Source: Candidatus Peribacteraceae bacterium
GTDB lineage: Bacteria > Patescibacteriota > Gracilibacteria > Peribacterales > Peribacteraceae
DNA length: 64,000 nucleotides
Direction of reading: 5' to 3'
NCBI GenBank assembly: GCA_040081825.1
Contig: JBEBFT010000001.1
Coordinates: forward strand, 67,580-131,579
Within the stretch, counting starts at the first letter, position 1, and each line of letters opens with the position of its first letter. The notes under the pieces were generated by a model. The model saw only the letters and a list, made by a program, of their open reading frames with translations. It searched no databases and was not told where the DNA came from. This document shows positions 427 through 3,996 of the stretch, one piece after another. A program made the translations under genes and the position numbers.

Positions 427-513
427 GCGAAGCTTGGGCTTTGCCCGAGCTGGAGCTGCACCTTTTTAGGAAGGAGAGCTCAAGAGAGGAAACGAAAGGT
501 TTCCTTTCATGCT
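427..513. repeat. Structured ~90-nt dispersed repeat, copy 2
   Basis: GCTTGGG-CTTTG-CCCGAGC and GAGAGGAAAC-GAAAG-GTTTCCTTTC hairpins; homologous to the other two copies. Confidence 0.75.
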
Positions 514-518
514 AAAGA

Positions 519-683
519 CTAGCAGTCACAACCGTATACGGTCTGACGCTTGTTCTCCTTGCAGCGCATAGCAGCCTTCTTAACCATGTTCTCGCATTCC
601 TTAGCGAGAGCATCGCAGAAGTCGCCACCGCAGCGAAGGCCCATCTTGGAGAGTACCTCCTTGACGTGTGATTGGACGATCAT
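519..683 (-). CDS. Small histone-fold protein (bacterial histone), 54 aa, 6 Cys
   Basis: Hand translation MIVQSHVKEVLSKMGLRCGGDFCDALAKECENMVKKAAMRCKENKRQTVYGCDC, with a histone-like helix pattern and an RxTVxxxD motif; below the 60-aa ORF cut-off. Confidence 0.8.
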   Translation of the reverse strand: MIVQSHVKEVLSKMGLRCGGDFCDALAKECENMVKKAAMRCKENKRQTVYGCDC

Positions 684-847
684 ACGAACGGGGGGGAAAG
701 AGTAGATACGTCATTGTATGCACGTGGGATTTTCGTACACAAGGCTTTTACGGGGGCTTGCCTTGCATATTTCCCACTTTCAGCGTATTTCGACTCTTTG
801 ACTGTCGTGCTTTTCTTTTGCGATTTCTTGGCTTAGACTAGCGGTCT

Positions 848-1120
848 ATGAAGCGTCCAATCTGGTTTAAAGCGAAAAAGTACGGGTGGGGCTGGAATCC
901 GTCTACGTGGCAGGGATGGCTTATTTTGTTTCTTTTCGTCGTTCTTGTCATCGCGTTATCAGTGATGATCGAGCGTGTTGCACTGACTCCAGAGGAGGGA
1001 TTCTGGCTTAGTTTTATGCACCTCACTCCACTCGTGATCGTCCTGATTCTCGTCTGCGCGTACACAGGTGAGAGGCCAAGGTGGAGGTGGGGAGGGAAGG
1101 ATATAAGACGAAAAAAATAG
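848..1120 (+). CDS. Small two-TM membrane protein
   Basis: WFKAKKYGWGWNPSTWQGW, two hydrophobic segments and a GERPRWRWG tail. Confidence 0.75.
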   Translation: MKRPIWFKAKKYGWGWNPSTWQGWLILFLFVVLVIALSVMIERVALTPEEGFWLSFMHLTPLVIVLILVCAYTGERPRWRWGGKDIRRKK

Positions 1121-1691: not shown

Positions 1692-2663
1692 TTACATACG
1701 TATCATCCTTCTGGCGATCGGCACGAAGAAGACGATAGATACGAGCAGTATGATCCCCGCAGTATGTGTGGGACCAGTCGCAGAGGTGGTAGGTGGTCTA
1801 TAGTTCGCGTACTGAGCAAGTGGTGCGCCGCTATGGAGCTTCTCGCTTGCAGACTCAACGGCGCTCGTAACAGCGCGCTGCTGATCCGCACCCGTTGCAT
1901 GCACGGTATAGGGGTTCGTTTGGATAGTCGCAGATCGCGTGGTGACGGCGACTGAAGAGGATACTGACGACTGTGAGCTGGTTCCTCCAATACTGATGCT
2001 GGCAGGCCCTGATGCATGGACGGTCACGACTGGTGCAGCGGATAACACACTGGAAGAAGAAGCGGACGTGGTTGCTCTGGCGTCGAACGGAATCGGGATT
2101 GGGTCACTATTTTCCGAATCTACGGATGTAGCCTGATTCTCTGTTGCAGCTTCGATCGGAAGCGAGACTGTGAAGGTGAGTGTTTGATCTTCGGGCAATG
2201 TTTCGGAGACGTACACGTATGGTCCCTTTGCATCGTCTGGAACTGTAAATGTAAACGGCTCGTCATCAGCGAAGAGTACTTGTGTCGTAAAGAGTTCTCG
2301 AGCGTTATGAGATTTCAGTACCTGTGGATCTTCGTTCATAGTATTGATCGTGACTTCGTCTCCTGGTTTGAGTTGCATTGTATTTGGATAAAACGTTCCC
2401 TCTGCAGTAATCGTGACGGTCTTTGTCGTATCAGTGTTTGTAAGCTGGCCCATCAGACTTTCTCCTAGTCCCATGCTCCAACCGATACTGACGAGCGCGA
2501 GTGTCATGCCGATAATCGCTGGCAACCCGATGCCACTTTTCTTCATCCGTGCTACTGGAACCATGTGCGATTCACTCGTTTTCCGTGACTGTGTTCGTAC
2601 AGGCACGGGTGTGTCCTCAGTATCCGTGGTGGTGTTCCAAGATGGAAGAGAGGGTGAAGACAT
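1692..2663 (-). CDS. Surface protein with cupredoxin-like domain, Ser/Thr-rich linker and C-terminal anchor
   Basis: TVTITAEGTFYPNTMQLKPGDEVTI resembles a cupredoxin fold; N-terminal TM; C-terminal ATGP, TM and RR. Confidence 0.6.
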   Translation of the reverse strand: MSSPSLPSWNTTTDTEDTPVPVRTQSRKTSESHMVPVARMKKSGIGLPAIIGMTLALVSIGWSMGLGESLMGQLTNTDTTKTVTITAEGTFYPNTMQLKPGDEVTINTMNEDPQVLKSHNARELFTTQVLFADDEPFTFTVPDDAKGPYVYVSETLPEDQTLTFTVSLPIEAATENQATSVDSENSDPIPIPFDARATTSASSSSVLSAAPVVTVHASGPASISIGGTSSQSSVSSSVAVTTRSATIQTNPYTVHATGADQQRAVTSAVESASEKLHSGAPLAQYANYRPPTTSATGPTHTAGIILLVSIVFFVPIARRMIRM

Positions 2664-2664
2664 G

Positions 2665-3996
2665 TTATGAGGGGAAAACGAATTGTCTACGAGCAGCGAC
2701 GACGGTGCCGATCACAGCTGAGAGAATGAGTAGTACACTGATTCCTGATCCTATTCCTGTTTCACCTGTGATCGTTGTCCCTCCTTTGGTAGACATAATG
2801 TTCTCTGCCTGCGGGTCGGTGAGGCCGCTTGCAAGCAGGGGAGATGTCGCGGTTTCTGGCTTACCAATCGTTACTGATACTTCTTTGCTGAACATGGTCT
2901 CTTCATTGCGTTCGTTAAATGCACGTACGGCGAAGAAGTATGTTTGTCCCGGCTCCAGATCTCGAATAATAGTTGTTGCGTAACTCGGCGGAACACTTCT
3001 GCGCTGCAGATACCTACCACTGACTGCTCCGTAGTAGATGTTGTATCCCTTCAGTTCAGAGCTCTCGAGGCCCAACCATCCGAGGTAGGCACTGTTATCA
3101 CGTGTTGTGATCTGCACTCCTTGCACTTGCAGTAGCATGAAACCGGACGGTGCAGTGTTGAACCGTGGGCCCCCAGCTGTAGTACCAGCTGACGATGCAC
3201 CGCCACTATTCTGCGTTCCTGAATTCAGAAGAGACGATGCGATACTGCTTGCAATGGCCATCGCCGAAGAGACGGTTGATCCGTTATTAGAATTTGTAGA
3301 TGCCGTGCTGGCACTGGATGACACGGCGGCGGACCCGAGCTCAACAACCAGAGACGCAGGTCGTACGAGGAGCATCGGTGTACGCTCTGTCGTACCGCAT
3401 CCGATGAGAACATCGATACACGGTGGCTGGGTCAATTTCCCCTGATAGTTGTCGTTTCCGGGAGCGGAAACACCTTCACCGTTCACTGCCGTGCGTCCTG
3501 CTCCGCTTGGCAGATATTGATCGAATGTGATGGTTGTATCCGATCCTGCTTTGATGACGCGGAATGTGACACGTGCGACACTCGCAGTGTTCTTTGCGAG
3601 GCTCTGAACTGATCCACCGATTTTGACGATTCCCTGCGATGCATCGATCGATTGCTCGCCAGGTGTTGGACTTGTGACAATGGACGTAAGCTCTACACTT
3701 CGTGCCTCCAGGACCTTTGGATCGTACTTGAGCCAGGAGCGAATATCTCTGACTGCAGCAGGTTGATCGGTCTTGAGTATGACATCGATATCCAGAATAT
3801 CGCCTGTGTTCAGTGTCGCTGTCGTGACACTCGTTGCGTCCAGAACAGAGTAGACGGGACAGGTTGTACGCTCGCTCTCTGTACAGTGTGGCTGCAATGA
3901 GAGCGACGTCCCAGCAGTTTGTGCTGACACGGTGTCTACATGTCCAGCCGTAAGGATCATGAGTAGCGCCAGTGTTGTTGCTGCTTCGCGCTTCAT
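2665..3996 (-). CDS. Secreted cohesin-domain plus fibronectin type III protein with C-terminal anchor
   Basis: Signal peptide; cohesin-like GDILDIDVIL...WLKYDPKVLE...ARVTFRV; FN3 motif GYNIYYG...DLEPGQTYFFAVRAFN; ETG, TM and RR tail. Confidence 0.75.
   Translation of the reverse strand: MKREAATTLALLMILTAGHVDTVSAQTAGTSLSLQPHCTESERTTCPVYSVLDATSVTTATLNTGDILDIDVILKTDQPAAVRDIRSWLKYDPKVLEARSVELTSIVTSPTPGEQSIDASQGIVKIGGSVQSLAKNTASVARVTFRVIKAGSDTTITFDQYLPSGAGRTAVNGEGVSAPGNDNYQGKLTQPPCIDVLIGCGTTERTPMLLVRPASLVVELGSAAVSSSASTASTNSNNGSTVSSAMAIASSIASSLLNSGTQNSGGASSAGTTAGGPRFNTAPSGFMLLQVQGVQITTRDNSAYLGWLGLESSELKGYNIYYGAVSGRYLQRRSVPPSYATTIIRDLEPGQTYFFAVRAFNERNEETMFSKEVSVTIGKPETATSPLLASGLTDPQAENIMSTKGGTTITGETGIGSGISVLLILSAVIGTVVAARRQFVFPS

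Follow-up and report, generated by a model that had tools for sequence, protein, structure and literature searches.

Can a frame of only 54 codons encode a histone and, if it does, what are six cysteines doing in so small a protein? The question is raised by positions 519..683, on the minus strand, of the window, by which we mean the whole stretch of DNA analyzed here: 64,000 nucleotides of contig JBEBFT010000001.1 (assembly GCA_040081825.1, Candidatus Peribacteraceae bacterium; positions 67,580 to 131,579 of the forward strand). A preliminary description of this locus had proposed an unannotated, cysteine-rich bacterial histone that might respond to redox state or to metals. We conclude that the open reading frame (ORF) is a real gene, that its product is an alpha3-truncated histone, and that, judged by its sequence, the protein belongs to the face-to-face (FtF) type, closest to HLp of Leptospira perolatii and HTkC of Thermococcus kodakarensis. 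At a probability of roughly 0.6, we favor the view that it is a small nucleoid-associated histone of this type whose cysteines are mostly passive, conservative substitutions.

519..683, minus strand: coding sequence (CDS) of an alpha3-truncated histone, predicted to be of the FtF type (ORF listing, translation, profile, AlphaFold2 [AF2] model, Foldseek, dN/dS)

A histone gene of 54 codons

The ORF runs from ATG to TAG (54 codons plus the stop) and is translated as MIVQSHVKEVLSKMGLRCGGDFCDALAKECENMVKKAAMRCKENKRQTVYGCDC, that is, MIVQSH...VYGCDC; the motifs singled out in the preliminary description (VQSHVKEVL, GLRCGGD, KRQTVYGCD and the terminal CDC) are all found in this 54-residue translation, as are the six cysteines, at positions 18, 23, 30, 41, 52 and 54. 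Three features might be taken to indicate a chance ORF or a miscalled frame: the frame is short, no Shine-Dalgarno (SD) sequence precedes it, and it was missing from the ORF track on which the preliminary description drew. We regard that explanation as negligible. A locus scan limited to one genome per species returned 36 loci, of which 34 were full length and were kept; a gene cut by a contig end (L036) and a 21-residue match in Caenispirillum (L037, E 8e-4) were left out. All 34 orthologous loci lie in metagenome-assembled genomes labeled Candidatus Peribacteria, Peribacterales, Peribacteraceae, Peregrinibacteria or "Patescibacteria group." For the window gene and its 27 nearest loci (28 coding sequences, 26 of them distinct), the mean rate of nonsynonymous substitution (dN) was 0.057 and that of synonymous substitution (dS) 0.754, a ratio of 0.076 over 325 pairs. 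The fold, described below, is confidently predicted and resembles solved histones, and SD-like motifs are scarce throughout this genome, an SD-like 4-mer being found upstream of only 61 of its 746 long ORFs. A Gracilibacteria-type genetic code, in which TGA specifies glycine, is unneeded; under table 11 the frame is uninterrupted and conserved.

The gene is unannotated at most with respect to the ORF track of this record. A word-indexed search recovered 16 close homologs (74-96% identity), and 4 of these 16 near-identical database clusters have been named "histone H3/H4" by JGI. Some database entries are longer, at 71-103 residues, and their N-terminal extensions cannot be aligned with one another upstream of a shared methionine; because a conserved putative promoter lies ~30 nt upstream of that methionine, we take the 54-residue form to be the product. 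The host assembly (1.08 Mb in 14 contigs, 97% complete) carries the histone gene in a single copy and also encodes HU (98.5 bits), so that the histone is not the sole nucleoid protein of the cell.

By itself the sequence says little to family databases: scans of Pfam and NCBIfam returned noise only (best E 0.081 and 0.15). Compared directly with the Protein Data Bank (PDB), the single sequence matched HTkC (9f2c, E 1.6e-3) and HLp (9qt0, E 6e-3), both end to end, and HBb/Bd0055 of Bdellovibrio bacteriovorus at 0.6. An exhaustive phmmer search of 1.84 billion cluster representatives gave 53 matches at E <= 1e-3, nearly all of them singlets of 54-70 residues or doublets of ~115-130 residues that share the pattern VV.SKVKE...G..GD...AL...RAK.N.RKTV...DL. 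Four long repetitive proteins with partial matches (P0018, P0024, P0047 and P0058) were judged non-homologous over the fold. From 41 family sequences we built an alignment, A2, that served both as a profile and as input for AF2. Searched against the PDB, the A2 profile found HLp at E 4.8e-20 (74.6 bits), HTkC at 7e-16 and HBb at 1.4e-13 (54 bits), followed by the archaeal histones HmvA and HMk at ~3e-3; PF00125, PF09123 or PF00808 was matched by only three or four of the 41 aligned members, and weakly.

The AF2 model built from A2 has a pLDDT (predicted local distance difference test) score of 96.2 and places alpha1 at residues 4-13, loop 1 at 14-21, alpha2 at 22-43, loop 2 at 44-50 and a one-turn alpha3 at 51-53. 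When Foldseek compared this model with the PDB, HLp came first (TM score 0.96, root-mean-square deviation 0.7 Å, 54 columns, 33% identity), followed by HTkC (0.94) and HBb (0.89). All listed matches were histone-fold proteins, none of them with an E-value below 1e-3, the query being very short. In alpha3-truncated histones the third helix is cut to three or four residues (Schwab et al. 2024, PMC11390915), and here the last helical turn spans 51-53 with the chain ending at residue 54. The near absence of helix 3, offered in the preliminary description as an oddity, is thus the very trait that defines the family (PMC11390915). Alpha2 is shortened as well; that of HLp is one turn shorter than its counterpart in HMfB (PMC12701072), and the model superposes on the solved alpha3 histones HLp and HTkC. 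The loop-2 motif R-x-T-x4-D (the RD clamp) is represented by R46, T48 and D53. R40, T48 and D53 do not vary among the 41 sequences of A2, and at least 90% of these share N44 and R46.

It is because the profile, the AF2 model and the Foldseek comparison agree that we assign the product to the alpha3-truncated histones, with significant similarity to that family in both profile and single-sequence matches. Fold, profile and signature residues have in this way borne out the histone identity first proposed, and the structural and homology comparisons that had been recommended returned histone-fold matches. The nearest characterized kin are HLp and HTkC, not the Bd0055/HBb and HMf proteins that had been named. 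We also considered a pseudodimeric histone of the DUF1931 group and rejected it: the query is a single 54-residue fold bearing DNA-binding signature residues, and the term "DUF1931" attached to 9qt0 is a label given by the PDB depositors, a matter of name only.

Oligomer type, relatives and distribution

In the FtF tetramer of HLp, R49, S52 and N53 of one chain face R55, T61 and F63 of the opposing chain (PMC12701072). Our alignments map residues such that the numbering of the HLp paper equals that of the query plus nine. R49, N53 and R55 of HLp are therefore R40, N44 and R46 in the query, all three invariant in 17 close homologs, and the HLp clamp R55-D62 becomes R46-D53. A dimer of the bacterial HBb/Bd0055 type was rejected, HBb having E and D in place of R40 and N44, and its profile score being 54 bits against 74.6 for HLp. 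Because R40, N44, R46 and D53 are present in the query and HBb differs at the first two, the protein appears to belong to the FtF type and not to that of Bd0055. Complex prediction with A2, four copies of the chain and four zinc ions gave ipSAE values of 0.03 and 0.05, against a mark of 0.42, with no contacts, and argues neither for nor against an assembly or the binding of metal.

By homology with HLp and HTkC, two chains would form a head-to-tail histone-fold dimer. Two such dimers would probably join at the C-terminal end of alpha2 (R40, N44), loop 2 (R46) and the alpha3 turn (C52, D53, C54), and the particle should bind DNA nonspecifically through the lysines of alpha1 and the bridge of beta structure between loops 1 and 2, working alongside HU. 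FtF histones are marked by a stable homotetramer in solution and by nonspecific DNA binding with wrapping of ~60 bp; dimers and tetramers, binding and wrapping of DNA, and some abundance in the cell may all be expected of the protein.

The resemblance to HLp (PDB 9QT0/9QT1/9QT2) extends to size, architecture and a single-copy stand-alone gene (PMC12701072). The two differ in several ways. HLp has no cysteine at T27, V32, L39, T50, T61 or F63, the positions corresponding to the six cysteines here; its nine-residue N-terminal extension is missing from the query; Leptospira is described in the HLp study as lacking HU (PMC12701072), whereas the genome examined here has it; and tetramer formation and DNA wrapping, which we can only propose for the query, have been demonstrated for HLp. 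HTkC (PDB 9F2C), the best single-sequence match in the PDB (residues 1-51), is archaeal, has a loop 1 two residues longer and lacks the cysteine cluster. HBb/Bd0055 (PDB 8FVX, 8CMP, 9EZZ, 9F0E) is also alpha3-truncated, has an RKT...D motif and, like the query, coexists with HU (PMC11390915), and it is a dimer that bends DNA (PMC11317129).

Histones are already known from Peribacteria; what is new is the cysteine-rich subclade. The supplement of Hocher et al. 2023 (PMC10627809) contains histone-fold proteins of 56-57 residues from Ca. Peribacter riflensis (ALM10226.1), Peribacter sp. UBA bins and Peregrinibacteria. The ordinary 56-residue Peribacter/Peregrinibacteria histones come from the same bacterial family as the query and, like it, are specified by single-copy stand-alone genes with pyrimidine-rich leaders. 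The query is 46% identical (24/52) to one ordinary Peribacter/Peregrinibacteria histone. Such proteins have 0-3 cysteines (19 singlets) against 5-6 in the group of the query, and they begin with MSYVVAS and end in (P/A)CDL or xEDL; the corresponding ends of the query are MIVQSH and GCDC. In a text search of the main texts of Hocher et al. 2023 and Schwab et al., neither Patescibacteria nor the candidate phyla radiation (CPR) was mentioned. Our literature searches found no paper on histones of Patescibacteria or on natural cysteine-rich prokaryotic histones; the one match with cysteines, MJ1647 (PMC10516927), was set aside, as its disulfides are engineered.

When the profile was run over a sample from the same class, 38 of 40 genomes belonging to the window's family proved to have a histone, as did 5 of 7 from one other family; the remaining families, with 253 genomes, yielded none. 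A sample spanning the phylum yielded 39 of 401 genomes, including 18 of 20 in a further family (f57). Among the Patescibacteria, histones of the FtF type thus appear to be present in nearly all genomes of two or three families, and most other families in the samples yielded none. Fused doublets, with two alpha3 folds in one frame, replace or accompany the singlet in several genomes of the window's family and of family f23 (G215:C1:387830-388386 [L058], G039, G149, G184, G191, G203, G023, G036, G060, G090).

Six cysteines in 54 residues

Histones are among the most cysteine-poor of proteins, and cysteine makes up 0.99% of residues in this genome (ORFs of at least 150 residues; 746 kept, 293,177 residues). 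At 6 of 54 residues the product has a roughly 11-fold excess over that background, for which a naive binomial calculation gives a probability (six or more cysteines) of 1.6e-5. The six positions are given below with the HLp residue at each, its role in HLp where one is reported (PMC12701072), and the residues found there in 261 alpha3 domains that share less than 60% identity with the query, a biased sample dominated by doublets.

C18: HLp T27, which lies in the loop-1 beta-bridge and contacts DNA; V in 183
C23: HLp V32; A in 190
C30: HLp L39, in the dimer core; A in 101, L in 97, V in 45 (243 together)
C41: HLp T50; A in 239
C52: HLp T61, at the tetramer interface; K in 106, R in 96 (202 together)
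C54: HLp F63, in the dimer core and at the tetramer interface; L in 135, V in 71, I in 17 (223 together)

Five of the six sites are therefore hydrophobic or small across the family, and C52 alone takes the place of a polar surface residue. Over the 34 loci, cysteine is present 34 times at position 52, 33 at 54, 31 at 18, 28 at 41, 28 at 23 and 24 at 30. All members of the 17-sequence alignment have C18, C41 and C52, and 16 have C54; both cysteine codons are in use at positions 18, 30, 41, 52 and 54. The preliminary description had asked whether the cysteines are conserved, and named unconserved residues or buried hydrophobic substitutions as what would tell against a redox role. The answer is divided: the core clade never lacks C18, C41 or C52 and almost never C54, and five of the six occupy sites of just the kind that had been held to speak against that role.

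The history of these residues can be followed in outline. Nineteen histones from families other than the window's have 0 or 1 cysteine each, and 19 singlets from other genera of that family and from family f23 have 0-3. Seven of the latter 19 terminate in CDL; cysteine at the equivalent of position 52 is therefore older than the clade to which the query belongs. In a maximum-likelihood tree of 53 distinct sequences (few columns, midpoint root, many forks unresolved), all proteins ending in CDC fall into one clade of 28 rows with support 100/98 and a stem of 1.43 changes per column; a 21-row core that includes the window protein also has support 100/98. Within the CDC clade the cysteine count rises as a ladder, from 2 to 3, then 3-4, then 5-6, and sister lineages have 0-3. 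The cysteines were thus gained singly and then kept.

Plain substitution in the core is our leading reading because the family has hydrophobic or small residues at five of the six sites, and it is favored further by the stepwise gain of cysteines at core-like positions. On this account the six residues would be for the most part conservative replacements of hydrophobic or small side chains, fixed one after another in a single subclade of Peribacteraceae, with no switch. We suspect that their role in the folded protein is a passive one.

A number of observations weigh against this reading of the protein, some of them bearing on DNA binding and others on the cysteines. Nine residues of HLp touch DNA (A13, S14, K15, K17, K21, T27, G29, T56 and T57; PMC12701072); only four of the nine are identical in the query (S5, K8, G20 and T48), HLp K15 and K21 are replaced by H6 and S12, and the net charge of the query is just +3 (7 K and 3 R against 3 D and 4 E). 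As to the cysteines, C52 is no hydrophobic swap, because position 52 is normally K or R. C18, C41 and C52 are invariant in the 26 distinct CDS of the core clade, though both cysteine codons are used at each; C54 is likewise invariant in those 26, with alanine seen in only two homologs (P0012 and L029). Finally, no alpha3 domain outside the clade has more than 3 cysteines: among the 261, the count is 0 in 105, 1 in 133, 2 in 20 and 3 in 3.

The first group of observations could mean that this is a histone-fold protein with a task other than general packaging of chromatin, acting perhaps as a specific regulator or a protein-binding adaptor, as has been proposed for DUF1931 and some other groups. 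The partial retention of the HLp contacts and the low net charge are what such a protein might show, HU could fill the general role of a nucleoid protein, the long stem of the CDC clade suggests a functional shift, and not all prokaryotic histone-fold proteins need organize genomes (Schwab et al., PMC11390915). We nevertheless consider this quite improbable. Residues that are absent from DUF1931 proteins are present here (K8, R17, G20-D21, R46-x-T48 and D53), the best matches are two FtF histones whose DNA binding has been studied experimentally, and the gene stands alone, with a putative promoter of its own and no partner gene.

The second group of observations speaks for a thiol/disulfide switch or a site that binds Zn, Fe-S or Cu between subunits, formed where loop 1 of one chain (C18) meets alpha2 and alpha3 of its partner (C41, C52, C54), beside the dimer-dimer interface; the stability of the tetramer or the compaction of DNA would then track metal supply or redox state. 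We hold this to be possible, if on balance unlikely. Four cysteines (C18, C41, C52, C54) are strictly retained, the count climbs along the ladder in a clade with 100/98 support as its sisters remain low, the load is unique among the alpha3 histones examined, and a basic residue was given up at position 52. C52 and C54 correspond to T61 and F63 of the HLp tetramer interface, and C18 to T27 (PMC12701072). In 112 natural doublets, moreover, Cys16 (loop 1 of the first fold) and Cys38 (alpha2 of the second) tend to occur together (39 with both, 33 with the first only, 2 with the second only and 38 with neither), an odds ratio of 22 that is uncorrected for relatedness. From this co-occurrence it appears that cysteine pairs recur across the junction between loop 1 and the alpha2 of the partner, which lends indirect support to the idea that loop 1 lies near the end of the partner's alpha2.

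A precedent of sorts exists in eukaryotes, where Cys110 of histone H3, at the H3-H3' interface, takes part in the binding and reduction of Cu2+ (10.1101/350652, PMC11988410). What is shared is a cysteine at a histone dimer-dimer interface for which metal chemistry has been proposed, and the comparison is one of analogy only. The H3 interface is a four-helix bundle of long alpha3 helices that are missing in the query, the site is not homologous, and it uses one cysteine and a histidine from each chain.

Several points speak against a metal site or switch in the Peribacteraceae protein. The character of five of the six sites across the family has been described, and the cysteines were acquired singly and not as a set. 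The only zinc-finger match in Pfam is noise (E 0.17). The spacing C-x22-C-x10-C-x-C corresponds to no zinc motif known to us, which counts against a metal site. In 37 singlets from outside the clade, the association of C18 with C41 is not significant (6/4/7/20, P 0.12; the sample is biased, having been collected with a search sequence that bears Cys). Peribacteria, in addition, are regarded as fermenting anaerobes whose cytoplasm is reducing, which counts against the disulfide reading; because of that cytoplasm, standing disulfides seem unlikely.

The most far-reaching form of the idea is that the only histone of this subclade is a metal- or redox-gated chromatin protein, operated through an inter-subunit cluster of C18 with C41, C52 and C54 at the FtF interface. 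We find it rather doubtful, and mention it for what it would entail: in an ultra-small cell, the assembly of tetramers and the compaction of DNA would hinge on the loading of Zn, Fe-S or Cu or on thiol oxidation, and a natural prokaryotic histone would for the first time be seen to carry its own sensor. Whichever reading is correct, the fixation of 4-6 cysteines in a 54-residue histone, two of them at positions of the HLp tetramer interface, amounts to a natural experiment, and this lineage could show how histone oligomerization is stabilized or regulated. Should the cysteines prove to be metal ligands or a switch, the compaction of chromatin in a CPR bacterium would depend directly on redox or metal state; should they be merely core substitutions, the clade still illustrates the extent to which a histone core can drift without losing its fold.

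Promoter, leader and surroundings of the gene

Upstream and downstream of the histone gene we recognize the following signals, the functions of the boxes being putative.

737..742, minus strand: putative -35 box, TTGTGT; TTGT columns invariant or at least 90% conserved in 15 aligned upstream regions
713..718, minus strand: putative -10 box, TACAAT; TA.AAT columns invariant or at least 90% conserved in the same 15 loci
684..706, minus strand: short pyrimidine-rich leader (..TCTACTCTTTCCCCCCCGTTCGT) with no SD sequence
484..508, minus strand: possible terminator hairpin, 11 nt past the stop codon, with a GGAAAC/GUUUCC stem and a weak U tract

The 15 orthologous upstream regions have in common TTGTG(y), a spacer of 17-18 nt (18 nt at the window gene), TA(G/C)AAT and a C/T-rich leader of ~22 nt in which no SD sequence is found. 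The pattern of conservation indicates that the histone gene has a promoter of its own, and transcription would be expected to start ~7 nt past the -10 box. A scan for consensus promoters did not report the -35 box, because only three of its six bases agree with TTGACA; the sole terminator called by that scan falls within another ORF. The evidence for the hairpin past the stop codon is weak, because the stretch as a whole folds no better than its shuffles (z -0.89).

A C/T-rich stretch precedes the ATG in all 34 orthologous loci and in 20 more distant ones, 54 Peribacteria loci in all. In the window it amounts to ~84% C/T over the last 25 nt (counted by hand), at about the 95th percentile for the genome, where upstream regions are pyrimidine-rich in general (mean 58%). 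Given how rare SD-like motifs are genome-wide, a histone leader that lacks one is nothing special.

Downstream, and convergent with the histone gene, lies a gene for a permease of the MacB_PCD/FtsX kind. Of the 34 loci, 25 have a homolog of it, which in 18 comes directly past the histone stop codon; the permease gene is the only conserved neighbor, and we read the adjacency as synteny and not as a functional link. On the other side, a divergent ORF of 90 codons (848-1120, plus strand) would encode two predicted hydrophobic stretches. It matches no Pfam family, and tblastn did not find it at any of the 34 orthologous loci; either it is confined to this lineage or it is no gene. Farther along, at 1692-3996 on the minus strand, are two large Ser/Thr-rich proteins of 323 and 443 residues, probably secreted or on the cell surface, and tblastn shows the pair kept near the histone gene in ~12 related loci.

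Within positions 1-2000 of the window, Rfam recognized only a tRNA-Tyr and one sub-threshold match to a small RNA. The tRNA gene is part of a repeat: at 1354-1593, the last 20 nt of tRNA-Tyr (GAGTCCAGCCCGGCCCACCA) and 90 nt that follow form two exact tandem units of 110 nt, after which comes a third copy of the 20 nt. Four other contigs also contain parts of the 90-nt spacer. The arrangement may have been left by repeated integration into the tRNA gene, as at an att-like site, or may be an assembly artifact; an ORF of 138 codons drawn across it (1185-1601) is spurious. Just upstream of the real tRNA gene, at 1185-1288, there is a truncated copy (85% identity over 76 nt) that has GAA for GTA as the triplet of its anticodon loop and has lost the 3' half, with the T-arm and acceptor. 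Because neither ARAGORN nor Rfam (E <= 1) calls this copy, it is probably a tRNA pseudogene.

The space between the permease and histone genes holds a structured repeat of ~100 nt (202-421; units at ~202-363 and 364-520, core 260-363), the reverse complement of which folds at -39.8 kcal/mol (z -4.2, with none of 200 shuffles as good). It is present here as a tandem pair, and a blastn search of the 1.08-Mb genome gave 13 matches that are 75-90% identical to it. Every copy lies between genes, often 7-10 nt past a stop codon, for instance behind the genes for HU and SecY and an ORF of 322 codons. The repeat looks like a REP-like (repetitive extragenic palindromic) or 3'-end element, and it appears to have been inserted at this locus, because in the nearest relative (L002) only ~100 nt separate the histone and permease genes.

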